64,000 nucleotides of DNA from NCBI GenBank assembly GCA_964577565.1, contig CAZNZL010000001.1, positions 14,566 through 78,565 on the forward strand, given 5' to 3'. Both the position numbers and the translations under genes were made by a program. Of the stretch, positions 5,094 through 56,132 are shown one piece after another (position 1 is the stretch's first letter; each line of letters starts with the position of its first letter). The DNA comes from an uncultured Candidatus Saccharibacteria bacterium (GTDB lineage Bacteria; Patescibacteriota; Saccharimonadia; Saccharimonadales; JAGQNJ01). The notes below the pieces were generated by a model. The model worked only from the letters and a program-made list of their open reading frames with translations. It had not been told where the DNA came from and made no database searches.

Positions 5094-6179
5094 ATGTCTG
5101 AGAATACTGGCACTATTAACGCTCTGTTTGAGGAAATTACGAATGCGTATCAACGTCTTGATATAGCGACCCTTAAAGTGAAATTGGCAACATTAGAACG
5201 CGCAACCGAAGAGCAGTCTTTTTGGAATGATTCGCTGTCGGCGCAAGAGACAATGAAGCAAATCGCAGACCTTAGAGGCCGCGTGGAGCCTTGGGAGGAG
5301 CTGCGCCAGGCTATAGTTGAGCTGAAAGAACTAGATGGGCTGGGTGATGCAAGTTTGAATAATGAAATAGCAGCGCAACTTACGCAAATTACTAAGGAGT
5401 TTCAAGCGCGCAAGAGAGATTTATTGTTTTCGGGGCCGTATGATGACCATGGTGCTATACTGAGCATTCATGCCGGAGCGGGAGGAACTGATGCTCAGGA
5501 TTGGGCACAAATGCTGCTTCGAATGTACGTACGGTGGGCTGAAGCAGAAGGCGGCAGGCCAACTTTAGTAGACCAATCAGCGGGTGAAGAAGCAGGCATA
5601 AAGAGTGTCACGCTCCAGATTGATACTTCTTTAGCGTATGGCAAGCTAAAAAGTGAGCACGGAGTTCATCGTTTAGTTCGACTTAGTCCTTTTAATGCAG
5701 ACAATTTGCGGCAGACGAGTTTTGCCAAAGTAGATGTTTTGCCTAAAATTGACAGCCCTGACGAGGTTAAGCTTGAAGATAAAGATCTTAAAGTTGATGT
5801 TTATCGGGCGGGCGGGCACGGCGGTCAATCCGTGAACACTACTGATTCGGCTGTTCGGGTAACGCACATACCGACTGGCATTACCGTTAGTATTCAAAAC
5901 GAGCGCTCACAGCTACAAAATAAAGAGATGGCGCTAACTATCCTTCGTTCGCGGTTAGCCCAACTACAACTAGAGCAACACCAAAGCCACCTCAGTCAGC
6001 TAAAGGGACCAAACCAGTCAGCTGAGTGGGGCAACCAAATTAGAAGCTATGTCTTACACCCCTATAAACAAGTTAAGGATCTTCGTACGCGTTACGAGGT
6101 CTCAGATCCAGATGATGTTCTCAATGGTAACCTCAACGGTTTTATAAATGCTTATTTAAATCACACCATGCACAGTTAA
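5094..6179 (+). CDS. prfB: peptide chain release factor 2, encoded in one uninterrupted frame
   Basis: Contains the SPF tripeptide (RLSPFNA) that marks RF2 and the GGQ motif (GGHGGQSVNTTDSAVR). 361 aa with no internal in-frame stop or +1 frameshift site. Confidence 0.95.
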   Translation: MSENTGTINALFEEITNAYQRLDIATLKVKLATLERATEEQSFWNDSLSAQETMKQIADLRGRVEPWEELRQAIVELKELDGLGDASLNNEIAAQLTQITKEFQARKRDLLFSGPYDDHGAILSIHAGAGGTDAQDWAQMLLRMYVRWAEAEGGRPTLVDQSAGEEAGIKSVTLQIDTSLAYGKLKSEHGVHRLVRLSPFNADNLRQTSFAKVDVLPKIDSPDEVKLEDKDLKVDVYRAGGHGGQSVNTTDSAVRVTHIPTGITVSIQNERSQLQNKEMALTILRSRLAQLQLEQHQSHLSQLKGPNQSAEWGNQIRSYVLHPYKQVKDLRTRYEVSDPDDVLNGNLNGFINAYLNHTMHS

Positions 6180-9100: not shown

Positions 9101-10255
9101 ATGATGAAACAAATAAACAAGTTTCCACAAAAAACTCATCGCCTATTTACGCGGGGCGCAAGTTTTGTGGGGGCGATGCTAATTGTGGCGTCATGTTTTA
9201 CGAGCCTGTACCAACTGCATGCTCAAACTATCCAGCAGCAAATTCAAGCCCTGCAACGTGAAAACCAACAAAATAGGAGCATCCTACAGCGTCTAAGCGA
9301 AGAAGCTACAAGCTATGAAGATGCTATTGAGCGTCTGCAATCAGAAATTGATGCTTTGCAGGCGCAAATCGATATTAACACCTCTGAGCAAGAACGCCTC
9401 AAACAAGAGATAGCAATTGTCGAAGCCGAACTTGCCCGCCAACAAGATCTCCTCGGTAAAAACATCCGGGCTATGTATGTAGAAGGTGACATTTCAACTC
9501 TCGAAATGCTTGCCTCGAGTAACGATCTGAGTGAATTTGTTGACAAACAACAGTACCGTACCTCCGTAAAAAACAAAATAGTCAGTACCCTCGAGAAGAT
9601 TAATGAGTTGAAGCACCAGCTCCGTGGTCAGAAAGAGCAAGTCGATAAACTACTGAAGCAGCAAACTGATCAGCGAGCCCTGCTTGCAAATAGCAAATTA
9701 GAGCAACGCAATCTTCTTTCTTATAATAGGGGGCAACAAGCAGAGTTTAATGCCAAAACAAGGAACAACCAAAATCGAATTGCTGAGCTCATTGCTGCTC
9801 AGCAGCGTGCTAATGACTCGGCGTCTGGGCTGCAATTCATTCGTATACCAGGCTCGGTTCAGCCGCATGATATAAATAGTGACGATTATCCTTATAAACA
9901 TTATGGGCATAGCCAGCTTGATGAGCCATGCCCCGGACCACCGCGAACAGCTGACTCGACAGATAGGTGGGGATATTGTACTCGACAATGCGTATCGTAC
10001 GTTGCTTGGGCAATTGAGCGCTCTGGCAGAACAGCACCGCGTGGTTGGGGAGATGCCAAGAACTGGGTGGTAATGGCGCCCTCAAGCTGGCTCGTCTTAA
10101 ACCCTATTCCGGGTGATATTGCTGTTATAACAGCTGGCACCTGGGGTCATGTTATGTATGTCGAACGTGTTGAGGGCAATAAAATGCTTGTTTCAGAGTA
10201 TAATCAACGGCTCGATGGCCGCTATCGTAACGATCGGTGGCTGACAATTCGTTAG
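9101..10255 (+). CDS. coiled-coil CHAP-domain peptidoglycan hydrolase, PcsB-like architecture
   Basis: N-terminal TM/signal segment, a coiled coil paralogous to the preceding gene, and a C-terminal CHAP domain with a Cys (CTRQCVSYVAWAI) and a His (GHVMYVERVEG). Confidence 0.8.
   Translation: MMKQINKFPQKTHRLFTRGASFVGAMLIVASCFTSLYQLHAQTIQQQIQALQRENQQNRSILQRLSEEATSYEDAIERLQSEIDALQAQIDINTSEQERLKQEIAIVEAELARQQDLLGKNIRAMYVEGDISTLEMLASSNDLSEFVDKQQYRTSVKNKIVSTLEKINELKHQLRGQKEQVDKLLKQQTDQRALLANSKLEQRNLLSYNRGQQAEFNAKTRNNQNRIAELIAAQQRANDSASGLQFIRIPGSVQPHDINSDDYPYKHYGHSQLDEPCPGPPRTADSTDRWGYCTRQCVSYVAWAIERSGRTAPRGWGDAKNWVVMAPSSWLVLNPIPGDIAVITAGTWGHVMYVERVEGNKMLVSEYNQRLDGRYRNDRWLTIR
9422..9621 (+). repeat. 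copy 2 of the 200-bp perfect direct repeat
   Basis: Identical to 8285-8484. The flanking sequence diverges immediately on both sides. Confidence 0.95.
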
Positions 10256-10302
10256 TCGTTTGCTGGTTTTGAAGCCCTGACTTCGTTATACTATGACTAC
10301 GT

Positions 10303-11520
10303 ATGGAGGAAAAAGAAAAAATCAGCACGTCCTTTAACAGGGCTCCAAAAAAGCAGCCTAAACTCACTAAAGTTATTGCAATAATTTCGGCTTTTGGACT
10401 GGTCTTTTTAGCTGGCATAGGGGTTGGTAACGGGCAAATATCATTTAGCGGGAACCAGTCGCGCCAAACTGCAGGCTTGCCACCAAATTTGTCGTATAGC
10501 TCTGTTGAAAAAGTCTACGACCTTCTTCGTAAGCAGTATGATGGTACGTTAGATGAAGCTAAGCTGCTCGATGGCTTGAAGAGTGGGCTGGTTGAAGCGG
10601 CAGGGGACCCGTATACAGAGTATTTGACCGCTGAGCAAGCTAGAGAGTTTGACGAGGAGCTAAACGGTACATTTAGCGGGATTGGTGCCGAGCTGGGCAA
10701 AGATGGCCAAAATATTGTAATTGTGGCCCCAATTAAGGGTTTTCCAGCAGAAAAGGCAGGCTTAAAGGCGCGTGACGTTGTTATTGAGATTAATGAAGAA
10801 ACCGCTCATGGTTTAAGCGTCAGTGAGGCGGTTCAAAAAATCCGTGGCGAAGCGGGCACGCAAGTAAAATTGAAAGTTTTGCGCAACAATAGTGAGACAC
10901 TTGATTTTACCATTACCAGAGATAACATTAGCATTCCGAGTGTCGAGTCTAGTATTGAGGGAGGAATCGGATATTTAAAAATCAGTCGCTTTTCTGACGA
11001 CACTGCCGCACTTTCGCGTCAAGCAGCAGAAAGTTTCAAACAAGCTGGGGTTAAGGCTGTTATTCTTGATGTTCGGGGTAATCCTGGCGGGTTGCTAGAT
11101 TCAGCAGTCAGCGTTTCGAGTTTATGGCTTACGGGCTCTCAAAAGGTATTAGAAGAAAAGCGCGACGGAATTGTTATAAAAACATATTACGCGCGAGACA
11201 ACCCGGTGCTCCAGCTTATACCAACAGTGGTAATGATTGATGGTGGTAGCGCAAGCGCAAGCGAAATTGTAGCGGGTGCACTAAAAGATAACGGCGCGGC
11301 TACACTTTTGGGTGATAAATCATTTGGTAAGGGGAGTGTGCAGTCTATTGAGCGCTTACCCGACGGGTCTGCGCTTAAGGTTACGATTGCTCGCTGGTTT
11401 ACGCCAAAGGGGCGCAATATTGATAAAGAAGGCATCGAGCCAGATAAAAAAGTTGAACAAACAAATAGTTCAATTTCTGACGTTCAATTGGATGCCGCAA
11501 AGCGTGAGCTACAAAAATAA
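10303..11520 (+). CDS. ctpA: S41 family C-terminal processing peptidase with PDZ domain
   Basis: N-terminal TM, a PDZ region (GIGAELGKDGQNIVIVAPIKGFPAEKAGLKARDVVIEIN), and S41 motifs (DVRGNPGGLLDSAV, GGSASASEIVAGALKD, FGKGSVQ). Confidence 0.9.
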   Translation: MEEKEKISTSFNRAPKKQPKLTKVIAIISAFGLVFLAGIGVGNGQISFSGNQSRQTAGLPPNLSYSSVEKVYDLLRKQYDGTLDEAKLLDGLKSGLVEAAGDPYTEYLTAEQAREFDEELNGTFSGIGAELGKDGQNIVIVAPIKGFPAEKAGLKARDVVIEINEETAHGLSVSEAVQKIRGEAGTQVKLKVLRNNSETLDFTITRDNISIPSVESSIEGGIGYLKISRFSDDTAALSRQAAESFKQAGVKAVILDVRGNPGGLLDSAVSVSSLWLTGSQKVLEEKRDGIVIKTYYARDNPVLQLIPTVVMIDGGSASASEIVAGALKDNGAATLLGDKSFGKGSVQSIERLPDGSALKVTIARWFTPKGRNIDKEGIEPDKKVEQTNSSISDVQLDAAKRELQK

Positions 11521-13752: not shown

Positions 13753-14376
13753 ATGTCAGAAGATATTCCACAGAACCCCAACCAAGATCAAAGATTCAGT
13801 CCAGAAATGGACCCAGGTACATGTGATGTTGTAGATTTACACGGTGAAACCCTACAACTTCCCCCGGTCCCTGTTATAGATAGAGAAACCGCACTAGCAA
13901 TGCATGGAATCAAGGGAGATATTGTTGCTGTTGTTAACCTACCATGGTCAGATGATGATCCTGTCGGCCAGGGTAATAGGTATAAAAAAATTGCTGTCAT
14001 TGACTACGGAGAAATAGGTGAAGACCCTCCCTATGTACAGTATATGCCGCCTGAAAACAGACCAATACCATTTTTTGGGAAAGTAAAATCTCGCTTTGGA
14101 ACCCAAGCGCTTAACTATTATCCGAAGGATCACGGGGTTACCTATTCACCGTTAAAGGAAGGAAGGACAATAATTGGTACAAGTATACATGGGCCAGAAG
14201 TCACAACTCCTGACAAAAGACGAAAGACTAGCTATAGGCTTGGACTACACGAAGAATTTGCTGGGAATGCTTTGATTTCTGAGGATCATTTTACGATCAC
14301 TAAAGACGGTGATAGATTAAGTATTACAGATCATTCGACTAATGGCACCCAAGTTGTGATTTCTAAAGAGTTATAG
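13753..14376 (+). CDS. FHA domain-containing protein
   Basis: The C-terminal third fits the FHA pattern (RTIIGTS...ISEDHFTITKDGDRLSITDHSTNGTQV). The N-terminal part is not recognised. Confidence 0.6.
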   Translation: MSEDIPQNPNQDQRFSPEMDPGTCDVVDLHGETLQLPPVPVIDRETALAMHGIKGDIVAVVNLPWSDDDPVGQGNRYKKIAVIDYGEIGEDPPYVQYMPPENRPIPFFGKVKSRFGTQALNYYPKDHGVTYSPLKEGRTIIGTSIHGPEVTTPDKRRKTSYRLGLHEEFAGNALISEDHFTITKDGDRLSITDHSTNGTQVVISKEL

Positions 14377-14392
14377 AGAGACGATAAGGAAC

Positions 14393-14665
14393 TTACTCAA
14401 CGGTTACTTCAGTGCGGGGGACTGATTTGCCAGTGAAAAGACGTACTTTTCGCGTTTCAAAGTTAACGACACCGTCTTTAGCGGCATGAATTGTGAAATT
14501 GCGGCTCATATACGTACCGTTGCCAGCACGTTTTGTCATACCAACTTGACGTACGATAACTTGGCCGTTTTTAACTTTTTGGCCACCAAAAAGTTTAACA
14601 CCTAGCCGTTGGCCTGGGCTGTCATGGATGTTTTTACTTGAACCACCTGCTTTAACTTTACTCAT
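14393..14665 (-). CDS. rpmA: 50S ribosomal protein L27
   Basis: 90 aa. MSKVKAGGSSKNIHDSPGQRLGVKLFGGQKV is the canonical L27 N-terminus. Confidence 0.95.
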   Translation of the reverse strand: MSKVKAGGSSKNIHDSPGQRLGVKLFGGQKVKNGQVIVRQVGMTKRAGNGTYMSRNFTIHAAKDGVVNFETRKVRLFTGKSVPRTEVTVE

Positions 14666-14667
14666 TT

Positions 14668-15879
14668 TTACTTCCTTATTAGTACCACGAGTTCGCGCCC
14701 CACGATCTGACCTTCTCTATGATAGATTAGCTCATCGTCTGCAGCGTGAACAAAACTCATACGAGTATAACCCATATCTGTTAAATGGTCAAGTACGGGC
14801 AAGTGTTTTATGCCGTTTTTAGTATGCCAGGCCGGCACCGCAATACACATTCTAAATTCTCTCCCATGCTTTAACTCAGTCACTACGTTAGTGTGTGTTG
14901 CAACATTTTGTAAAAATTTTTTATGAATAGTGTTAACACTATGAATTACTTCTTTGAGTTTGCTAGGGTCTGGTTCAGCGGAGAAGGGACGGCCAAGGTA
15001 TGTTTCGCACGCAATGGTACCAAAGGTACTAATCCAGTCGTAATCAGTTGCATCAGCTACTTCAAGCGTCAACAGCACGCCATCGTAGCCTATAGTTTTG
15101 TGTAACCAGTGGATATTTTCTTTAGTGCTAAGTATCATTTTTTGATCAATATCGCTACCCATCGCAAAGCACCCCATCAGGAGGGCTTCTTGCAGGATGA
15201 CACCGGTACCACAAAATGGATCCAGTACGTGTACTTCCTTCTTATGAGGGTTTTGGCTTCCTATTGCTAGGTTGAGAATAATTTGCGCAAGTTTTGGCGG
15301 GAGCATGCCAACTCGGGCATCGCGAGCAGGGCGAGCTTGATCACGGGCAGCATAGGCATCGATATCTTGCACCTTAATGGTTTGGGCAAGAATAGTTTTG
15401 TTGCCATTTTTTATATATAAAAGTTCTATGCCAAGCTCGGCAGTTAATTTGTTACGCAAAACTTGGGCACTTTTAAGCTCAGGTGAGTCATTAGGGATAA
15501 CTCGCATTGAACGGCCAGCGTCGCGCGCAGCTTTTTTTACCTTGAGGCCGGTGGCATTAATGCTTTTTGGTGAAGTTTTTAAACCGTAAACGCTAATACC
15601 AAACTTAACTTTACCCTCGGGGCGATAGCTCAAGTGTTTCGGTACATTGTCAACTAAGTATTTTTCAAGGCTTTTCCAATCGGTGTAGGGTAGCTCTGTC
15701 AGGGTTTTCGCAAGTTTCAGCGTGCCGCCTAATCGCTTAAAAGGAATATCTTCAACAGGCTTGTTTAACAATGCGGCTGATTCGCCAACGGGTTTTACGG
15801 CTTCCGCTCCAAATAAACTTTCGAGCTCGGCCAGTGATAGGCCTTTTTGCCGTCCTAATATACAAATACTTTCAAACAT
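14668..15879 (-). CDS. putative SAM-dependent RNA methyltransferase (THUMP/UPF0020-like)
   Basis: SAM-binding motif I is present (VLDPFCGTGVILQEALLMG), with an N-terminal domain of THUMP-like size. I prefer the start at ATG 15879 (MFESICILGRQ) because the longer ORF would run through the divergent promoter. Confidence 0.6.
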   Translation of the reverse strand: MFESICILGRQKGLSLAELESLFGAEAVKPVGESAALLNKPVEDIPFKRLGGTLKLAKTLTELPYTDWKSLEKYLVDNVPKHLSYRPEGKVKFGISVYGLKTSPKSINATGLKVKKAARDAGRSMRVIPNDSPELKSAQVLRNKLTAELGIELLYIKNGNKTILAQTIKVQDIDAYAARDQARPARDARVGMLPPKLAQIILNLAIGSQNPHKKEVHVLDPFCGTGVILQEALLMGCFAMGSDIDQKMILSTKENIHWLHKTIGYDGVLLTLEVADATDYDWISTFGTIACETYLGRPFSAEPDPSKLKEVIHSVNTIHKKFLQNVATHTNVVTELKHGREFRMCIAVPAWHTKNGIKHLPVLDHLTDMGYTRMSFVHAADDELIYHREGQIVGRELVVLIRK

Positions 15880-15907
15880 TCTACATACAGTATAATGGTA
15901 TTTGTCT

Positions 15908-16951
15908 ATGGCAGAAGAAAAACGACGAGCACGACTTTGGAAGATCATTATTAATGCCATTACACTTTTAGCGTTAGGACTATTGGTTTACTTGGTTCGA
16001 CACGAAGTGTATGAGACGTTGCAACGAGTAGACGATGTTTACTGGGGGGCGTTGCTACTGATTGTTCCGGTACAGGCATTTAATTTTTATGCTTACACCT
16101 TAATGTATGATGATTTACTGAACTTTTTTAAGGTTCGCCTATCACGAAGCAAGTTATACCGAATAACGTTAGAACTAAATTTTGTAAACCATGTGTTTCC
16201 GAGCGGGGGTGTGTCGGGTTTTTCATATTTTAGTTTGCGTTTGCGTCCATTGGGGGTAACAACTGGTAAGTCTACGCTCATACAAATGATGCGTTTTATT
16301 CTTATTTTTGTCTCTTTTCAGCTGGTGCTTGCATTAGGTCTAGTATTGTTGGCATTTTCTGGCGCGGTAAATAATTTTGTGCTACTTATCGCCGGGTCGC
16401 TCGCAACCTTATTAATAGTCGGAACGTTAATGCTGGCCTATATCATTGGTAGCAAGCGGCGAATCAATAGCTTTTTCACCGCTATCACAAAGCTTTTTAA
16501 TAAAATCATAAACATCTTTCGTCCGAGTCACCCTGAAACTATCGACATCGAGCGTGCTCAAAATGCTTTCACGGAATTGCATGAAAGCTATACACTTATC
16601 AAAAAAGACCTTGGTATTCTGCGTAAGCCGTTGCTTCATGCGCTGATTGCAAACGTAACCGAAATCATTACGCTTTATATTGTCTTTGTGGCGTTTGGGT
16701 TTTGGGTAAACCCCGGAGCGGTAATACTTGCCTATGCGGTAGCGAATTTTGCCGGTTTAATATCTGTGTTACCGGGTGGGGTAGGAGTGTACGAGGCGCT
16801 AATGACAGCTGTATTGGCCTCTGCTGGCGTGCCTCCGGGTATAAGTGTTCCAGTGGTTATTATGTACCGTGTCATTAATACTGTATTGCAGCTGCCGGTG
16901 GGGTACTATCTGTATCACCGGGCAGTTCAAGATAACGATATTAAATTATGA
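15908..16951 (+). CDS. flippase-like / lysylphosphatidylglycerol-synthase transmembrane-region family (UPF0104) membrane protein
   Basis: About 8 predicted TM helices. The length and the conserved C-terminal PGGVGVYEA segment are typical of this family. TATAAT lies at 15891-15896, 11 nt upstream of the ATG at 15908. Confidence 0.65.
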   Translation: MAEEKRRARLWKIIINAITLLALGLLVYLVRHEVYETLQRVDDVYWGALLLIVPVQAFNFYAYTLMYDDLLNFFKVRLSRSKLYRITLELNFVNHVFPSGGVSGFSYFSLRLRPLGVTTGKSTLIQMMRFILIFVSFQLVLALGLVLLAFSGAVNNFVLLIAGSLATLLIVGTLMLAYIIGSKRRINSFFTAITKLFNKIINIFRPSHPETIDIERAQNAFTELHESYTLIKKDLGILRKPLLHALIANVTEIITLYIVFVAFGFWVNPGAVILAYAVANFAGLISVLPGGVGVYEALMTAVLASAGVPPGISVPVVIMYRVINTVLQLPVGYYLYHRAVQDNDIKL

Positions 16952-18063
16952 GCACCAAACCGACCTATTCAGTTAGTGATTTTGTGGCGGTTTTTAACCA
17001 GGTAGTAGACGTCGCTTTTGGGTCAGTCACAATTAGCGGCGAGTTAGCACAATTTAGAATTAGCAAAAACCGATGGGTGTATTTTGATTTAATTGATGAG
17101 TACGCAAGTGTGCGTTTTTTTGGGACGGTAAATAGTTTGCCCGGACCGCTTGAAGACGGCATGACCCTGGTAGTACATGGAATACCGCAACTCCACCCCC
17201 GGTTTGGTTTTAGTATTACCGTTCAATCAATTCAGCTCAAAGGCGAGGGTACAATAAAAAAAGCTTCAGCCCTTCTTGAAGCCCAGCTTGAAAAAGAAGG
17301 TTTATTTGCTGCGGAACGCAAACGCCTTTTACCGTACCCGCCACAAACAATCGGTCTTATTACGTCGAGTGAGTCTGCCGCGTATGCAGATTTTGTAAAG
17401 ATTATAAATGCACGGTGGGGCGGAGTAGAGATTGGTCTTTATGATGTGCACGTTCAGGGCGAGCAGGCGCCTTCACAAATCATAGAAGCTATAAATTACT
17501 TTAATGCACATGCCACGCCGCCAGATGTTTTAGTGATCACGCGGGGCGGGGGTAGCGCTGAAGATCTACAAGCATTTAATACTGAAGGGGTTACCCGAGC
17601 TATCGCTGCCAGCCGTATACCAACACTGGTGGCAATTGGGCATGAGGTAGATTTATCGTTAGCCGAGCGAGCTGCAGATAAACGGGCCAGTACGCCAAGT
17701 AATGCGGCTGAAATGCTAACACCTGATAAGCAGCATCAGCGGGCGTTATTAGAGCAAGCCTCCAGGCAAATATTGTATTACACCGAACAGACACTTCATG
17801 CTGAAAAGCAGTCAATTAAACAAATACTAGAGCGGCTAGATCAAGCGACTCAACATACTTTACAATCTCTACGGCAAGAATTAGATATCGCGCACAATAC
17901 CATTACACTGCTTAACCCACTTGAGGTATTAAAGCGTGGTTATGTCATGGTGCGCCAGGGCAGTAGCTTTGTAGTTAGGGCCCAACAACTTAACACAAAG
18001 GCCGAGCTTTCGTTACGCTTTTACGACAAAGAGGTTACAATTAAGCCAACATCAGGAGATTAG
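16948..18063 (+). CDS. xseA: exodeoxyribonuclease VII large subunit
   Basis: An N-terminal OB-fold region (YSVSDFVAVFNQVVDVAFGSVTISGELAQF) and the core segment ITRGGGSAEDL are present. Followed by xseB. Confidence 0.9.
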   Translation: MSTKPTYSVSDFVAVFNQVVDVAFGSVTISGELAQFRISKNRWVYFDLIDEYASVRFFGTVNSLPGPLEDGMTLVVHGIPQLHPRFGFSITVQSIQLKGEGTIKKASALLEAQLEKEGLFAAERKRLLPYPPQTIGLITSSESAAYADFVKIINARWGGVEIGLYDVHVQGEQAPSQIIEAINYFNAHATPPDVLVITRGGGSAEDLQAFNTEGVTRAIAASRIPTLVAIGHEVDLSLAERAADKRASTPSNAAEMLTPDKQHQRALLEQASRQILYYTEQTLHAEKQSIKQILERLDQATQHTLQSLRQELDIAHNTITLLNPLEVLKRGYVMVRQGSSFVVRAQQLNTKAELSLRFYDKEVTIKPTSGD

Positions 18064-18066
18064 ACA

Positions 18067-18252
18067 ATGTCTACGTATCAAGAACTATCACACCAACTAG
18101 AAGTAACTATGAATAAGCTGCAAAGTGGCGAACTTAGCTTAGATGAAACCATTGATGCCTACAATGAAGGGATAGCAATCATCAAAAAAATGGAAAAACA
18201 ACTCTTACTGGCAGAAAATAAAATTAAGAAGATAAAAGACAGCTTACAATAA
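18067..18252 (+). CDS. xseB: exodeoxyribonuclease VII small subunit
   Basis: A 61-aa helical protein (ELSLDETIDAYNEGIAIIKKMEKQL) immediately downstream of xseA. Confidence 0.8.
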   Translation: MSTYQELSHQLEVTMNKLQSGELSLDETIDAYNEGIAIIKKMEKQLLLAENKIKKIKDSLQ

Positions 18253-18776
18253 TGCAACTCGCATGGAACATTGCTTTAGTAAGCTGCGCTTTGTTATTTA
18301 TAGCATTTACCTTTGTTGTTGCGTTCGGTGCCCCATACTTGCCAACGTTACGAAAGCGCGTCCCTGAAGCCTTAGATTTAATTGACTTAAAACCAGGTCA
18401 GATTTTAGTAGAGCTTGGTAGCGGCGATGGTCGTGTGCTGGCTGAGGCTGCTCGCAGAGGCATTACATGCATAGGCTATGAGTTAAATCCGTTTTTAGTG
18501 TTGTATTCAAAAGTGCGGCTTATTAAATATCATAAATTCACCAAAGTAATTTGGGGGAACTACTGGCATAAACAGTGGCCAAAAGCGCAGGGAATATTCG
18601 TATTTTTATTACAGCCATATATGGAAAAGTTGGGTACAAAAATTGAACAAAATTATCCTGAGGGCATAAAGCTGGTTAGCTTTGCCTTTACCATACCAGG
18701 CAAACAACCCGTCAAAGAAAGTAACGGTTTATACCTCTACCGTTTCGGTAAGCAATTGAAAAAAACACGCCAGTAG
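18252..18776 (+). CDS. class I SAM-dependent methyltransferase with an N-terminal TM helix
   Basis: Motif I is present (VELGSGDGRVLAEAARRG). The target cannot be inferred. Confidence 0.6.
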   Translation: MQLAWNIALVSCALLFIAFTFVVAFGAPYLPTLRKRVPEALDLIDLKPGQILVELGSGDGRVLAEAARRGITCIGYELNPFLVLYSKVRLIKYHKFTKVIWGNYWHKQWPKAQGIFVFLLQPYMEKLGTKIEQNYPEGIKLVSFAFTIPGKQPVKESNGLYLYRFGKQLKKTRQ

Positions 18777-43238: not shown

Positions 43239-43938
43239 ATGAAAATTTATACCAGAAAAATAGAATAATTCAATACCTTTCTTTCGCCTGCATTAGAACG
43301 GGCTTCGACAATCTCTTTCTCGTATTACATAGAAATATTCCAATTTTCTCAGTAAAAAACCCAGCCTTGTTCTCTTTTGTTTCGGCAAATTTATTCCCAT
43401 TTTCTGTCCGGCCGGACAAGTTTTGTGAATACTTATTCTTTCACTCGCTTGCTAACACAAGCTATCAGCGACCCACTTTTCTCAGTAGCAAGAAAAGATG
43501 GGGCAAAAGTGCCACTGGCAACTGAAAAACAATGATGTTCACTCACTTGTCTGGCATCCGGATTCTACGTAACGACCCGCCAGCTGGCGGGGTCGCCCGT
43601 CAGTAGCCGGGTGAGCCTCGAATCACGGTATACCAGACTACGTTCATTCTTTTCAGTTTTTCAGAGCCAGATAAGCTTAAAGCAATATGTGGCTTGGTTT
43701 GCTCCTGGTACAAGGTGCGTCAAAAATACAATTATAGTCTGAGGACTTCCCGGCAGTTGCCGGGCGACCGTTAGGGAGTTGTCCGAAGCATTGTATTTAT
43801 TGACAAGCACCTTGCCAAGAGTAAACCATTGCCACGAGGGGTTTTGCCTTCTTTTGACCCAGCTGCAAAAGGAGGTCGCCTACAGCTCACGGAGTGAGCG
43901 GGGCGAAATACTTATGATAATTCAAATACTTTTATTGT

Positions 43939-43993
43939 CTTCGCTTTCGTCCTTTTGGACTCATCAGCGTAAGTACACACTTACGGAGCGAAG
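43939..43993 (-). ncRNA. hammerhead self-cleaving ribozyme, type III topology
   Basis: The minus strand reads CUUCGCU-C-CGUAAG-UGUGUA-CUUACG-CUGAUGA-GUCC-AAAA-GGAC-GAA-AGCGAAG. The complete conserved core is present (CUGAUGA, GAA, the A15.1-U16.1 pair, C17). Stem I has 6 bp, stem II has 4 bp starting with a G-C pair, and the open stem III has 7 bp. Confidence 0.85.
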
Positions 43994-44094
43994 ATGACAA
44001 GAAGACAATAGTTTAGGAACAGAAGAAGTGGCAATGAGAGCCAAACGTCTGAGAAAACCCCAAACTACTCTCTGCTTGCCACCGTCGCTGGTGA

Positions 44095-44568
44095 TCAGTC
44101 GCCGCCAATGAACGAGTAGTCCGCGTCCATCACGCCGCCCTGACGAGTCATCTCGTTCCGGCAGATGGCGATGATGGCAGAAGCCATCCACTCGGCGATC
44201 ATCTCATCAAAGACAGCTTGGACGCCGCTGAAAGCGACGATCAGCCCGTCACGGATGACGCTGCCGCCCCACTTGACGTCGCCGTCTTGCAGCAGGTGCG
44301 GTGCACGCTGCTGAACCTCGCGGCTCGACATCTTCGTTCGCTTGGAGAGCTGCGCCTTGGCATGGGCGATGCGCTTGTACTTGTCGTCATCGCGCGTGCC
44401 ATTGGTCTCGATGGTCTCCGTGAAGAGGACACTGCCATCGCGAGGGTGGAGCACCACGATGGTTCCGGCTAGCTTGTTGGTCACGCCGTCATTACGAGCG
44501 GCATTGACCCCTTGGCGAACCATACACCATGCAAGGTCGCAGATTTCCTCGGAAATTCCTCGGTACAT
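44095..44568 (-). CDS. GC-rich ORF, possible GlcG/HbpS-like (DUF336) protein
   Basis: WGGSVIRDGLIVAFSGVQAVFDEMIAEW resembles the DUF336 core GGxPxxxDGxxIGAxGVSG..xxDxxxA. Hand counts of three 60-nt lines give 38, 32 and 40 G+C, against 25 of 60 in a topA line. Both strands carry long shadow ORFs, as expected for high GC. I prefer the ATG at 44568 (MYRGISEE) over the TTG at 44592. Confidence 0.45.
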   Translation of the reverse strand: MYRGISEEICDLAWCMVRQGVNAARNDGVTNKLAGTIVVLHPRDGSVLFTETIETNGTRDDDKYKRIAHAKAQLSKRTKMSSREVQQRAPHLLQDGDVKWGGSVIRDGLIVAFSGVQAVFDEMIAEWMASAIIAICRNEMTRQGGVMDADYSFIGGD

Positions 44569-44718
44569 GCTTGTCTCATCTCTGTGACTCAACTGTGTTA
44601 ACAGTGAGACAAAAAGCTTAAAAGTTAAGCCCTTTATCTCACCGCTAACAATAAACTATGTCTGCTTGTCAAATAACAGGGGTGGAATAGATATAATTAC
44701 TCAACACCCTATACTTAT

Positions 44719-44748
44719 ATTATAGCATAGATAGTAGTTAAATGTCAA
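44719..44748 (-). promoter_or_regulatory. sigma-70 promoter on the minus strand (TTGACA, 18 nt spacer, TATAAT, with TGC before the -10) upstream of the GC-rich ORF
   Basis: The minus strand reads TTGACAtttaactactatctatgcTATAAT. Confidence 0.55.
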
Positions 44749-54833: not shown

Positions 54834-56132
54834 TTACGAAGATGTAGGCGGGGTTGTTTGGGGGTTGTTTGGCGGCTGTTGTGGGGTTGCCGGCGCGCTG
54901 GCTTGTTGCGGTGTAGGCACAGCTGAAATTTCTTGGCCTGGATTAGCTTGCGTGCCATTTGTCGTAGTTGAAACAGTAGGATTTTGGGTAATAAACTCTT
55001 CAATTTGAGCCTGTAGAGCCGCTTCTTCTTCTGCTGTGGTTGAGGTTTCTGGCATTGAGCTGTTGGGCGCGGTCATGTTTACGGGCTGCTGATTGGGGTC
55101 AGGCGTGAACTTGTCTGGTTGTTGGGGAGCAATAACTGGTGTTTGCGGGGTGGAGGGATCGGGTGAAGTGGCAGGCGGGCTGCCTGCTGGTGTTGATTGA
55201 GTTGGCTGAGCAACGTTAGGCGGGGTGGCTGGCATGGTAACGCCTTCTGGTGTAATGACCGAGTTTGCGGCCGGTTGTGGCGCAGGAACCGCTGCCTTCT
55301 CTTCTTCTAAAAGTTCGTTAATGTTAGGCCCATTGGTAATAACATCTGATATTGGTTGAATGACTTTCTTGCGCCCACTAATTGACGGGTCTATGTACGC
55401 CTCTGATCCGGCTGCCACGGCAGCAGCATTATTCTTAACAATAATTTGCTCGCCGGCTGGTTTGTCTTCAGGCAAGGCTGCCGTTGCTGGGTCGTTACTA
55501 GCCGTGCTTGGAGGGGTCGTAACCATTGTTGATGGTGGTTCAGTGGCCGATTGCGCTGCCCCTGCTGGCGGCGTGGGGTCGGGTGCAGGTTGCGCTGCCG
55601 GTTGTGGTGGCACGGGAGCGGGTTGCACTATTTGCGGGGTGGTTGTTGGCGAGTTCGCAATCGGTACCGCTTGCGTGTTGTTGGTTAGCGAGGTAGCGGT
55701 TGGAGGGGTGACTGAAGGCGTCACGGGGTGTTCAACAGGAATACCGCCGACACTTGATGGGTTTTGGTCGCCAAGCATTTGCTGGGCAGCCTTCACCACA
55801 TCTTCTAGGGTGACTTGTGATTTAACAAGATATAAATCTGCCCCCAATTGCTCTGCTTTGGCTTTATCTTCAGCTTGGTTCAAGGCTGTCATCATAATAA
55901 TTTTGGCATTTTTGGTTTCGGTGGTGCTGCGCAGAATATCAAGCATGTCAAAGCCGCTTACTTTGGGCATCATTATGTCCGAGATTATCAGATCTGGCTT
56001 TTCTTTAATGGCAAGCGCCAGGGCAGCTTCACCATCTGCTGCCGAAATAATTTCATAACCCTCAGCAGCCAACCTAGCCTCGTATATCTCACGAAGATTA
56101 TTGTCGTCCTCGACCAGCATTACTTTTGCCAT
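54834..56132 (-). CDS. response regulator receiver domain fused to a low-complexity tail of about 300 aa rich in Pro/Thr/Ala/Gln
   Basis: The receiver motifs are intact (VEDDN, DLIISDIMMP, MTA, YLVKS). The remaining part is P/T/A/Q-rich with no recognisable output domain. It lies immediately downstream of the histidine kinase. Confidence 0.8.
   Translation of the reverse strand: MAKVMLVEDDNNLREIYEARLAAEGYEIISAADGEAALALAIKEKPDLIISDIMMPKVSGFDMLDILRSTTETKNAKIIMMTALNQAEDKAKAEQLGADLYLVKSQVTLEDVVKAAQQMLGDQNPSSVGGIPVEHPVTPSVTPPTATSLTNNTQAVPIANSPTTTPQIVQPAPVPPQPAAQPAPDPTPPAGAAQSATEPPSTMVTTPPSTASNDPATAALPEDKPAGEQIIVKNNAAAVAAGSEAYIDPSISGRKKVIQPISDVITNGPNINELLEEEKAAVPAPQPAANSVITPEGVTMPATPPNVAQPTQSTPAGSPPATSPDPSTPQTPVIAPQQPDKFTPDPNQQPVNMTAPNSSMPETSTTAEEEAALQAQIEEFITQNPTVSTTTNGTQANPGQEISAVPTPQQASAPATPQQPPNNPQTTPPTSS

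Follow-up and report, generated by a model that had tools for sequence, protein, structure and literature searches.

The DNA analysed here (the window) is a stretch of 64,000 nucleotides (nt) from an uncultured Candidatus Saccharibacteria bacterium (assembly GCA_964577565.1, contig CAZNZL010000001.1). On its minus strand lies an open reading frame (ORF) of high G+C content (GC) that encodes a protein of 157 amino acids (aa). We consider it probable that this gene is the cargo of a horizontally spreading single-gene cassette of about 810 bp (44748..43939, minus strand), in which a foreign high-GC coding sequence (CDS) is expressed from an mRNA that would be trimmed by a ribozyme and paired end to end. 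Behind this reading stand an anomaly in GC at third codon positions (GC3) that runs through the whole gene family, a net loss of GC from its members, insertion at variable sites, a covarying hammerhead ribozyme, a covarying helix between the 5' and 3' untranslated regions (UTRs), and the occurrence of more than one type of cargo. Coordinates are positions in the window, and L-numbers (L098, L106 and so on) denote loci of other genomes used for comparison.

The ORF 44568..44095 has a GC content of 59.9%, against 44.8% for the window, and is the top GC peak of its length (474 nt) in the 64 kb. Its GC3 is 0.759, compared with 0.426 ± 0.058 in the 61 other ORFs of the window (z = 5.7); GC at the first and second codon positions (GC1 and GC2) lies about one standard deviation or less from the same 61 ORFs. 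Because GC1 and GC2 are normal, amino-acid composition was rejected as the source of the GC excess. The step in GC is sharp and coincides with the start and stop codons. Translation starts at the ATG at 44568, which gives 157 aa and is consistent with the N-termini of the homologs. A preliminary description of this DNA had singled the gene out as a GC outlier with overlapping long ORFs on both strands and a native-type promoter upstream. The codon-position comparison bears out the first point, and the overlapping ORFs are indeed there (44218-44472 and 44342-44587 on the plus strand, 44241-44438 on the minus strand). So is the promoter (TTGACA, 18 nt, TG-extended TATAAT), which scores 12 out of 12 in a consensus scan and is kept in the close relatives L098 and L099; the 1.6-kb region holds six promoter-like sites, compared with 1.5 ± 1.1 in shuffled sequences. 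The second-highest GC peak of the window (54834-56132, 52% over the ORF) has a GC1 of 0.61, a GC2 of 0.51 and a GC3 of 0.45. We rejected it as an instance of the same phenomenon, since its GC3 is normal and the peak reflects amino-acid composition.

The GC anomaly is not peculiar to this genome but is family-wide in Saccharibacteria. The 157-aa protein has 87 homologs, the best of which are 73-76% identical and come from Saccharibacteria wherever they are named; a profile search of 1.84 billion representative proteins gave 842 clusters at E ≤ 1e-3. Two conserved peptide patterns were also scanned against GTDB, each species being represented by one genome, and 50 loci were obtained. These loci, which represent the close subfamily, belong only to Actinomycetota and to Saccharibacteria-type metagenome-assembled genomes (MAGs), a term used here for MAGs that carry the label Saccharibacteria, Saccharimonadales or Patescibacteria and for two called simply 'bacterium'. 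The Actinomycetota carriers are many Demequina, Rhodococcus, one Mycolicibacterium MAG and Flavimobilis. In the Actinomycetota loci the gene (63-71% GC) does not differ in GC from its flanks. In Saccharibacteria-type loci with flanks of low GC (40-57%) the gene usually has 55-66% (49-52% in three copies); the excess over the flanks is 5 to 17 points in almost all copies and only 1-2 points in two. GC3 in these copies is usually 0.74-0.92, and the gene is usually the sole high-GC segment within ±10 kb. A neighbour-joining tree puts the window protein inside a Saccharibacteria clade that adjoins a Demequina/Actinomycetota clade, and a second Saccharibacteria clade groups with Rhodococcus; bootstrap support for the deep branches of both groupings is low. 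A phage collection held no homolog of the protein, and viral contigs searched with a pattern made from two of the RNA elements described below (box F and the hammerhead) gave no match, so a phage or satellite origin is unsupported.

The 3'UTR of the gene contains a hammerhead ribozyme. A search of 1.65 kb with Rfam model RF00008 (Hammerhead_3) gave 29.2 bits (E = 0.001), the match covering model positions 7-48 only. When the whole window was searched at Rfam gathering thresholds only a tRNA-Glu was found; searches in E-value mode gave the sub-threshold hammerhead and nothing else credible. The conserved catalytic core is nevertheless present: CUGAUGA and GAAA, the A15.1-U16.1 pair and the cleavage nucleotide C17. 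In an alignment of 17 sequences this core is invariant except at N7, where the consensus allows variation, and for a U4→C change in L057 and a U-U at 10.1/11.1 in L055a; the 15.1/16.1 pair is UA in all 14 scorable rows. Among 20 distinct sequences 96.5% of the positions in the helices are paired and 14 of the 17 pairs show compensatory changes. Slid alignments are only 33-47% paired, and none of 500 shuffles reached the observed values. There are three helices, of which stems I and II are closed by loops and stem III is open, a type III topology that is thus backed by covariation.

How widespread is this ribozyme, and is it tied to the gene? The core pattern recurs at a corresponding position behind homologs of the gene, and a covariance model (R1) was built from eight of these sequences; the window hammerhead scores 82.6 bits with it. 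R1 was searched against both strands of the window and 99 loci (1.25 Mb) and later against a further 120 kb of loci. The first search gave 23 matches, all on the sense strand just downstream of the GC-rich gene bar one, which follows a neighbouring ORF in L055. The later loci added four behind the gene and one behind another ORF (L106), making 28 in total, of which 26 are on the sense strand behind a copy of the gene and two behind other GC3-rich ORFs. Of the matches behind the gene, 23 are full-length, one is cut by a contig end, and one, in L056, is a weak 18.9-bit match to a box F remnant. L106 also has one weak overlapping antisense match (E = 0.68). There was no match in L104, L105 and L107-L109, nor in the loci of named actinobacterial genera; one was found in L011, a locus labelled Actinomycetota, a label that is unverified. 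In L011 (flank GC 57%) the gene is present at 9878-10651 with both boxes and a hammerhead of the CUGAAGAG variant; further along (14163-18366) are ORFs for an OLD-family ATPase/nuclease-like protein and a UvrD-like helicase, which look Gabija-like by eye only. Some copies appear to have lost the hammerhead secondarily: L056 (3000-3040) and L064 (about 6775) still have box F and the 5' strand of stem III but no ribozyme body. In L100 a terminator directly follows the ribozyme.

Immediately 5' of the hammerhead is a sequence, box F, that is the reverse complement of a sequence in the 5'UTR, box R. The core of box R (44671..44659, UGACAAGCAGACA) lies about 100 nt upstream of the start codon, and that of box F (44007..43995, UGUCUUCUUGUCA) directly 5' of stem III. 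The pair was found in every hammerhead-type locus for which there is enough sequence. In 15 loci 96.9% of positions are paired and 7 of 13 pairs have changed on both sides, as in L059 (CAUG/CAUG), L055 (GAUAAG...AGAAA / UUUCU...CUUAUC) and L005 (GUAUUGA/UCAAUAC); the helix is 13-20 bp long. In the 725-nt transcript that runs from the predicted start (near 44712, placed there from the promoter) to the predicted cleavage site, this helix closes the molecule in both the minimum free energy (MFE) and the centroid fold, and the fold of the whole transcript has a z-score of -7.0 against dinucleotide shuffles. Copies that end in a terminator (L080, L083, L086, L087) have a 14-bp helix of their own between the 5'UTR and a segment just after the stop codon, with U-G wobbles and a compensatory change. 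In scoring 5'UTR/3'UTR duplexes, arms of 140-160 nt did not discriminate; short arms did.

The window and its relatives have a second, R-like sequence (box R2) immediately behind the stop codon. With the GCGA just upstream of it, R2 is able to form a local duplex with box F and with the 5' strand of hammerhead stem III; RNAalifold on seven loci gives 28 pairs for this arrangement, 11 of them compensatory. Such pairing could compete with folding of the ribozyme, or could lock the new 3' end after cleavage. It is mutually exclusive with an alternative hairpin in the 3'UTR (Table 1). The 5'UTR itself has two predicted hairpins. The sequence of hairpin 1 is kept in L098 and L099. Equivalents of hairpin 2 in L100, L001, L011 and L066 have conserved stem sequences and variable loops, and among near-identical strains this hairpin is hypervariable.

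Table 1. Positions of the cassette features in the window, listed from the promoter to the 3' end of the hammerhead.
Feature	Position	Strand	Remarks
Sigma-70-type promoter	44719..44748	minus	-35 TTGACA at 44748-44743, 18-nt spacer, TG-extended -10 TGCTATAAT at 44727-44719
5'UTR hairpin 1 (AUAGGGUG...CACCCCUGU)	44676..44712	minus	At predicted transcript start; in MFE and centroid folds
Box R (UUGACAAGCAGACAUAGUUUA)	44652..44672	minus	In 5'UTR; complementary to box F
5'UTR hairpin 2	44596..44650	minus	Predicted fold; long, near-perfect; between box R and the ribosome-binding region
CDS	44095..44568	minus	157 aa; DUF336/HbpS-like fold; GC 59.9%, GC3 0.76
GCGA + box R2 (GGCAAGCAGAGAGUAGUUUGGGG)	44058..44088	minus	R-like copy just after the stop codon
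Alternative 3'UTR hairpin (GUGGCAAGCAGAGAG...CUCUCAUUGCCAC)	44028..44082	minus	In MFE and centroid folds of whole transcript
Box F (UAAACUAUUGUCUUCUUGUCA)	43995..44015	minus	Reverse complement of box R; 1 nt upstream of hammerhead
Type III hammerhead	43939..43993	minus	From covariation and custom model; about 110 nt downstream of stop codon
Hammerhead stem III (CUUCGCU / AGCGAAG)		minus	3' strand within 43948-43939
Predicted cleavage site	3' of C43986	minus	Prediction from sequence
Hammerhead stem I	43985-43968	minus	
Hammerhead core CUGAUGA	43967-43961	minus	
Hammerhead stem II	43960-43949	minus	GUCC/GGAC, AAAA loop
GAAA (43948-43945) and 3' strand of stem III	43948-43939	minus	

The cassette is inserted at a variable site. 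Its position is just downstream of topA, in a conserved gene order: dprA, topA, a variable segment, a sigma70_r4/HARE-HTH gene, murG, ftsW. Named homologs of this topA are found only in Candidatus Saccharimonadales, which places the window in that group. The locus is syntenic in five relatives whose topA is 92, 86, 82, 72 and 69% identical to that of the window, and in all five the GC-rich gene is absent from the segment downstream of topA (loci L104 to L109). The segment holds a 130-aa ORF in the 72% and 69% relatives and a low-GC 141-aa ORF in the 82% relative; orf42780 of the window was considered as a homolog of these small ORFs and gained no tblastn support. The 92% relative shares its sample and its MAG with L098 and L004; its segment (L104/L105) is 553 nt long and has no cassette, and the cassette is found elsewhere, between Pyr_redox_2 and GH63 genes. 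Other genomes have the gene between gatC and uvrB, clpB and nusA, or hpf and serS. Its genomic context differs in every lineage examined, and none of the genes that flank it in the window is near any homolog examined. Copies in unrelated contexts are alike at the nucleotide level only within the cassette, from box R to the hammerhead: homology between the window and its nearest relative is confined to 44727-43940, and in the pair L009/L061 it begins about 12 nt before box R and ends with the 3' end of the hammerhead.

The layout is not restricted to one cargo. At the same site downstream of topA, the 86% relative (L106) has a different hammerhead cassette (L106:5260-5817), made up of a promoter (TTGATT-N17-TGCTATAAT), an R-like box (GAGACAGAGAGA), an ORF, a 3' hairpin, an F-like box (UCUCUGUCUC) and a hammerhead scoring 66.9 bits. 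The ORF (5378-5683) is unrelated to the window gene; it encodes 101 aa, has a GC3 of 0.82 in a locus of 44% GC, and has no Pfam or phage match. The public gene call at this cassette is an antisense 67-aa ORF and is probably a mis-call. This has a bearing on annotation, since gene callers can thus mis-call such cassettes (the antisense ORF of L106 is called and the cargo is not) and Rfam thresholds miss the ribozyme. In L055 there are two hammerhead cassettes within 1.6 kb, and the second carries an orphan 144-aa ORF of 57% GC with no homologs and no Pfam match. The boxes differ in sequence among the cargo types (UGACAAGCAGACA, GAGACAGAGAGA, CGACAAUCAGAC), which favours an RNA-structural role for them over that of a shared protein-recognition site.

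The region around these two cassettes (L055:800-3160) contains three consecutive GC-rich ORFs separated by spacers of 30-38% GC with native-type promoters. The middle ORF is lipoprotein-like (MKKLAAAIAVVAVVAGCGG...) and is followed by a terminator-like hairpin; the outer two end in box F and a hammerhead. The DUF336-like copy in this group is frameshifted and its hammerhead has the U-U at 10.1/11.1, so that it looks like a decaying cassette.

How might such a cassette have arisen and how might it work? The cargo would have come from a high-GC donor, some time ago, with Actinomycetota as the leading candidate, and since then Saccharibacteria would have passed the cassette among themselves, with insertion between housekeeping genes in various places. 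In the transcript the hammerhead would cleave 3' of C43986, removing the downstream RNA and leaving a 2',3'-cyclic phosphate. The new 3' end would then be locked in a duplex, either with box R in the 5'UTR or with the local R2. The mRNA would thereby become a closed loop with paired ends, insulated from the genomic context and probably long-lived. Self-cleavage at this position, the transcript ends and the stability of the mRNA are predictions made from the sequence.

Several observations weigh against this picture. The Rfam score of the hammerhead (29.2 bits) is below the gathering score of 48.5. The two-phylum distribution of the gene comes from a scan with two peptide patterns, which may have biased it, and there are remoter homologs (28-42% identity) on megaplasmids of Proteobacteria, so the picture is limited to the close subfamily. 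No Actinomycetota homolog is above 48% identical to the window protein (the nearest are at 40-48%), and for this reason no recent donor is identified. No recombinase or transposase gene, target-site duplication or other mechanism of mobility was found. The sense strand of the R-F helix has G-U pairs and A-C mismatches in a ratio of only 6:3, which leaves room for a DNA-level role of the inverted repeat. In two sets of loci with syntenic flanks (L098/L099/L004 and L083/L080/L086) the gene retains a synonymous-site identity of 0.70-0.79, whereas that of its neighbours is 0.44-0.52 (saturated); its amino-acid divergence in the same sets equals or exceeds that of the neighbours, and dN/dS, the ratio of nonsynonymous to synonymous rates, is 0.2-0.7. 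Lastly, family CDSs fold into somewhat more stable structures than codon-shuffled versions of themselves (mean z of -1.70 for eight homologs, compared with -0.39 for 12 control genes).

The last two of these points bear on what we rank as the main rival explanation, namely that high GC3 is kept by selection within Saccharibacteria, either for a stable, RNase-resistant, structured mRNA or for some special mode of translation; on this view a single stable-mRNA design would take in hammerhead, end-pairing and GC-rich body alike. The slow synonymous turnover relative to the syntenic neighbours is what such selection would give, and L080, L083 and L086 have a GC3 of 0.87-0.92 although synonymous sites in their flanks are saturated. 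The structured CDSs and the z-score of -7.0 for the whole transcript point the same way, as does the fact that three unrelated cargo ORFs (this gene with a GC3 of 0.76, that of L106 with 0.82 and that of L055 with 57% GC) are all GC3-rich. That said, the z-scores for structure are modest and come from homologs that are not independent of one another, and low synonymous divergence equally fits recent allele exchange or selection on synonymous sites. Allele exchange between cassette copies is directly visible in L098 and L004/L033: identity is 95-100% over the flanks and the 3' half of the cassette, and falls to 35-75% over the 5'UTR hairpin and the first 70 or so codons (L098:7930-8210). The L004/L033 allele is a mosaic, with an N-terminus like that of L099 and a C-terminus identical to that of L098. 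This pattern suggests recombination or diversifying selection on the N-terminal helix.

Is the GC excess decaying or maintained? On the terminal branches of four independent close groups, synonymous third positions changed from GC to AT 53 times and from AT to GC 11 times (8 against 1 on the branch leading to the window). Mutation-selection balance expects equal fluxes. From a simulation at equilibrium with the same design, including the artefact introduced by parsimony, a ratio of about 1.5 is expected; only 0.03% of its runs came up to the observed fraction (P about 3e-4). The copies are therefore losing GC, as expected of an ameliorating import from a GC-rich donor, and some of them are partly ameliorated, with a GC3 of 0.50 in L028, 0.55 in L027 and 0.60 in L066. 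On this evidence we regard upkeep of the GC excess by selection as unlikely, although it is the strongest of the competing accounts. Amelioration of horizontally acquired genes is a concept said to go back to Lawrence and Ochman. The window gene conforms to it in that the anomaly is at third codon positions and the direction of change is towards the composition of the recipient. It departs from simple amelioration in that the anomaly persists across a recipient clade whose proteins are 50-76% identical, and seems slower to decay than synonymous turnover in the flanks predicts.

A less likely explanation is that boxes R and F are DNA-level inverted repeats on which a recombinase or transposase acts in trans, the hammerhead being incidental to the mobility of the element. 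Inverted repeats with co-varying arms do flank the gene, the insertion sites between housekeeping genes vary, different cassettes occupy one hotspot, and near-identical strains have mosaic alleles, all of which such an element would account for. It fits poorly with box sequences that differ by cargo type and with G-U wobbles on the sense strand, and neither a transposase gene nor a target-site duplication was seen. The conserved unit, moreover, reaches about 55 nt past box F and so takes in the hammerhead, whereas past box R it goes on for only about 12 nt; edges as asymmetric as these match an RNA unit better than the symmetrical ends of an element.

The preliminary description found a transfer from host to symbiont attractive. 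Taken as a recent, direct event, this would have brought the gene into this particular genome out of an actinobacterial host of high GC, and a local promoter would then have been captured. A GC3-rich gene in low-GC surroundings, the presence of the close subfamily in just one other phylum, Actinomycetota, an orthologous site that is empty of the gene in relatives and the 8 to 1 excess of GC-to-AT changes on the window branch would all suit it. This account nevertheless runs into the identities, since the closest relatives of the protein (73-76%) are from Saccharibacteria and have the same GC excess and the same RNA elements, whereas the best Actinomycetota proteins reach 40-48%. The cassette as a whole (5'UTR, boxes, hammerhead) is 77-89% identical at the nucleotide level to those of Saccharibacteria MAGs, and the nearest Actinomycetota homologs are without the RNA elements; loci of named actinobacterial genera lack it throughout, the exception to a purely Saccharibacteria distribution being L011. 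High GC also ends exactly at the ends of the CDS. We accordingly think a recent direct transfer very improbable. Horizontal acquisition in the broader sense is supported by foreign composition next to a native-type promoter, an empty site in five relatives and the decay from GC to AT. A native origin had been expected to show itself in best matches to close relatives of similar GC; the best matches are indeed close relatives, yet their genes too are GC outliers in their own genomes. Finally, a chimera of assembly or binning, with an actinobacterial fragment mis-joined into a Saccharibacteria contig, might be suspected from a contig break inside the gene in one related MAG (L004/L033), but the two fragments overlap by 55 nt, the GC shift falls on codon boundaries, and more than 30 assemblies made independently in different projects contain the gene together with a native promoter and UTRs of low GC, in some of them on contigs 100-800 kb long; this excludes a chimera for practical purposes.

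With the cassette reading retained, what is new is a solitary chromosomal cassette that has its own promoter, a GC3-rich cargo, a hammerhead in the 3'UTR and, adjacent to this, a long-range closing helix; horizontal transfer alone is ordinary. Hammerheads in bacteria are often situated near integrases, or flank genes in prophages, and a part in mRNA processing has been suggested for them (PMC3088659, Perreault et al. 2011), but their biological role is still undefined (review PMC6765202). The window ribozyme resembles the type III hammerheads (RF00008) of bacteria and prophages in its core, its three-helix topology and its position beside single genes, whose mRNAs it would process. It differs from them in having no prophage or integrase context, in being of a type tied to one chromosomal gene family of Saccharibacteria and to at least two other GC3-rich ORFs, in its constant place on the sense strand in the 3'UTR, and in being preceded by a box that pairs with the 5'UTR. 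Within the library searched, no paper was found that links hammerheads to Saccharibacteria or Patescibacteria, or to DUF336 genes. Ribozymes in 3'UTRs that modulate expression are also known, for example the Clec2 hammerhead and reporters with a 3'UTR twister, in which cleavage lowers expression (PMC6765202). The window arrangement is like these in that a self-cleaving RNA beyond the stop codon is predicted to set the 3' end of the mRNA. It differs in the predicted fate of the cleaved end, which would be tied up in a long helix with the 5'UTR, an outcome that suggests stabilisation.

A comparison can also be made with the gene cassettes of integrons (an ORF plus attC). Both are short single-ORF modules with unrelated cargo, an imperfect inverted repeat at the 3' side and exchange at a hotspot. 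The cassettes described here differ in having their own promoter, a 3' ribozyme in place of attC, no attI, and repeat arms that flank the ORF, and in being solitary rather than arrayed, although L055 has two within 1.6 kb. No integrase-like gene was among the genes called around the loci looked up; an explicit search with an attC consensus was not made.

A wider claim, which we put forward tentatively and think rather doubtful as it stands, is that Saccharibacteria possess a modular cassette system in which foreign GC-rich ORFs, possibly derived from their hosts, are exchanged as promoter-to-hammerhead units with ribozyme-trimmed, helix-closed mRNAs. If true, an ultra-small symbiont would be using ribozymes to domesticate and insulate the genes that its genome acquires, and bacterial hammerheads would have their first defined physiological role. 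It is a matter of speculation that unusually stable mRNAs with host-like codon usage might act outside the symbiont cell. Apart from such extensions, the locus offers a conserved, gene-specific and structurally explicit hammerhead arrangement, and with it a concrete prediction on the formation of the mRNA 3' end and on mRNA stability. Genomes of Saccharibacteria are small and highly syntenic, and solitary GC3-rich, fast-evolving genes that move from one gap between housekeeping genes to another, and are exchanged at hotspots, bear on how episymbionts gain genes, possibly from high-GC hosts.

The GC-rich gene product had been likened to GlcG/HbpS (DUF336) proteins in the preliminary description. 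The likeness holds at the level of the fold, and sequence matching is weak: Pfam PF03928 (HbpS-like) scores 17.5 bits (E = 0.0044), under the 25-bit cutoff, and matches 9 of 27 family members at E ≤ 0.01 (best 3.3e-6). An AlphaFold2 model based on 27 homologs has a mean predicted local distance difference test score (pLDDT) of 93.5 and a predicted template modelling score (pTM) of 0.88. When it was compared with the PDB using Foldseek, the 23 best matches were all of the DUF336 fold (probability 1.0, TM-score 0.50-0.68, identity 14-22%), among them OrfY (2a2l), HbpS (3fpv), EfgA (6bws), the C-terminal domain of PduO (5cx7), Ybr137w (4clc) and NahX (9jth), and also 4nkp. The protein thus resembles the PF03928 group (GlcG, HbpS, EfgA, PduO C-domain, OrfY, NahX) in predicted fold, size and glycine-rich core motifs. 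Ligands in that group vary with the member and comprise haem, iron, cobalamin and formaldehyde. It differs from them in its 14-22% identity and sub-cutoff Pfam score, in invariant residues of its own, which in the close subfamily include C10, K71, K99-W100-G-G (including G102), F113, G115, D121-E122 and C136, and in a hypervariable, fast-evolving N-terminal third. Scans of the protein against NCBIfam, PADLOC and PHROGs gave no match, and neither did the family profile when run by sequence against the PDB. From the modelled fold, the product is probably a small ligand- or cofactor-binding protein of the GlcG/HbpS/EfgA type.

Two Actinomycetota homologs have neighbours that could be read from their translations. 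In Rhodococcus (L039:7347-10483) the ORFs ahead of the homolog read as an aldehyde dehydrogenase and a GMC oxidoreductase, and stop and start codons overlap, an operon setting typical of GlcG-type proteins. In Demequina (L016:10001-10977) it overlaps the start of an ORF for a YbaK/ProX-like deacylase.

Downstream of the cassette in the window is a segment of about 700 nt that is free of ORFs (43240-43935). Within it, a region on the minus strand (43366-43462) scores 20.8 bits (E = 0.06 over the 700 nt searched) with the Rfam model group-II-D1D4-3, whose gathering score is 32; this weak match is probably chance. Another (43540-43790, minus strand) folds with a z-score of -3.0 and has motifs that resemble RNase P by eye (GGGAAGUCC, ACCCGGCUA, GGUCGCCCG/CGGGCGACC); a reading as RNase P was rejected, as the likeness is by eye and Rfam gave no match. 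A promoter-like site is present at 43818-43790 (minus strand), and a 200-nt core (43687-43887) is 87.6% identical, in inverted orientation, to the segment downstream of topA in the 92% relative (L104/L105). The segment 43240-43935 may be a small RNA gene that lacks annotation.

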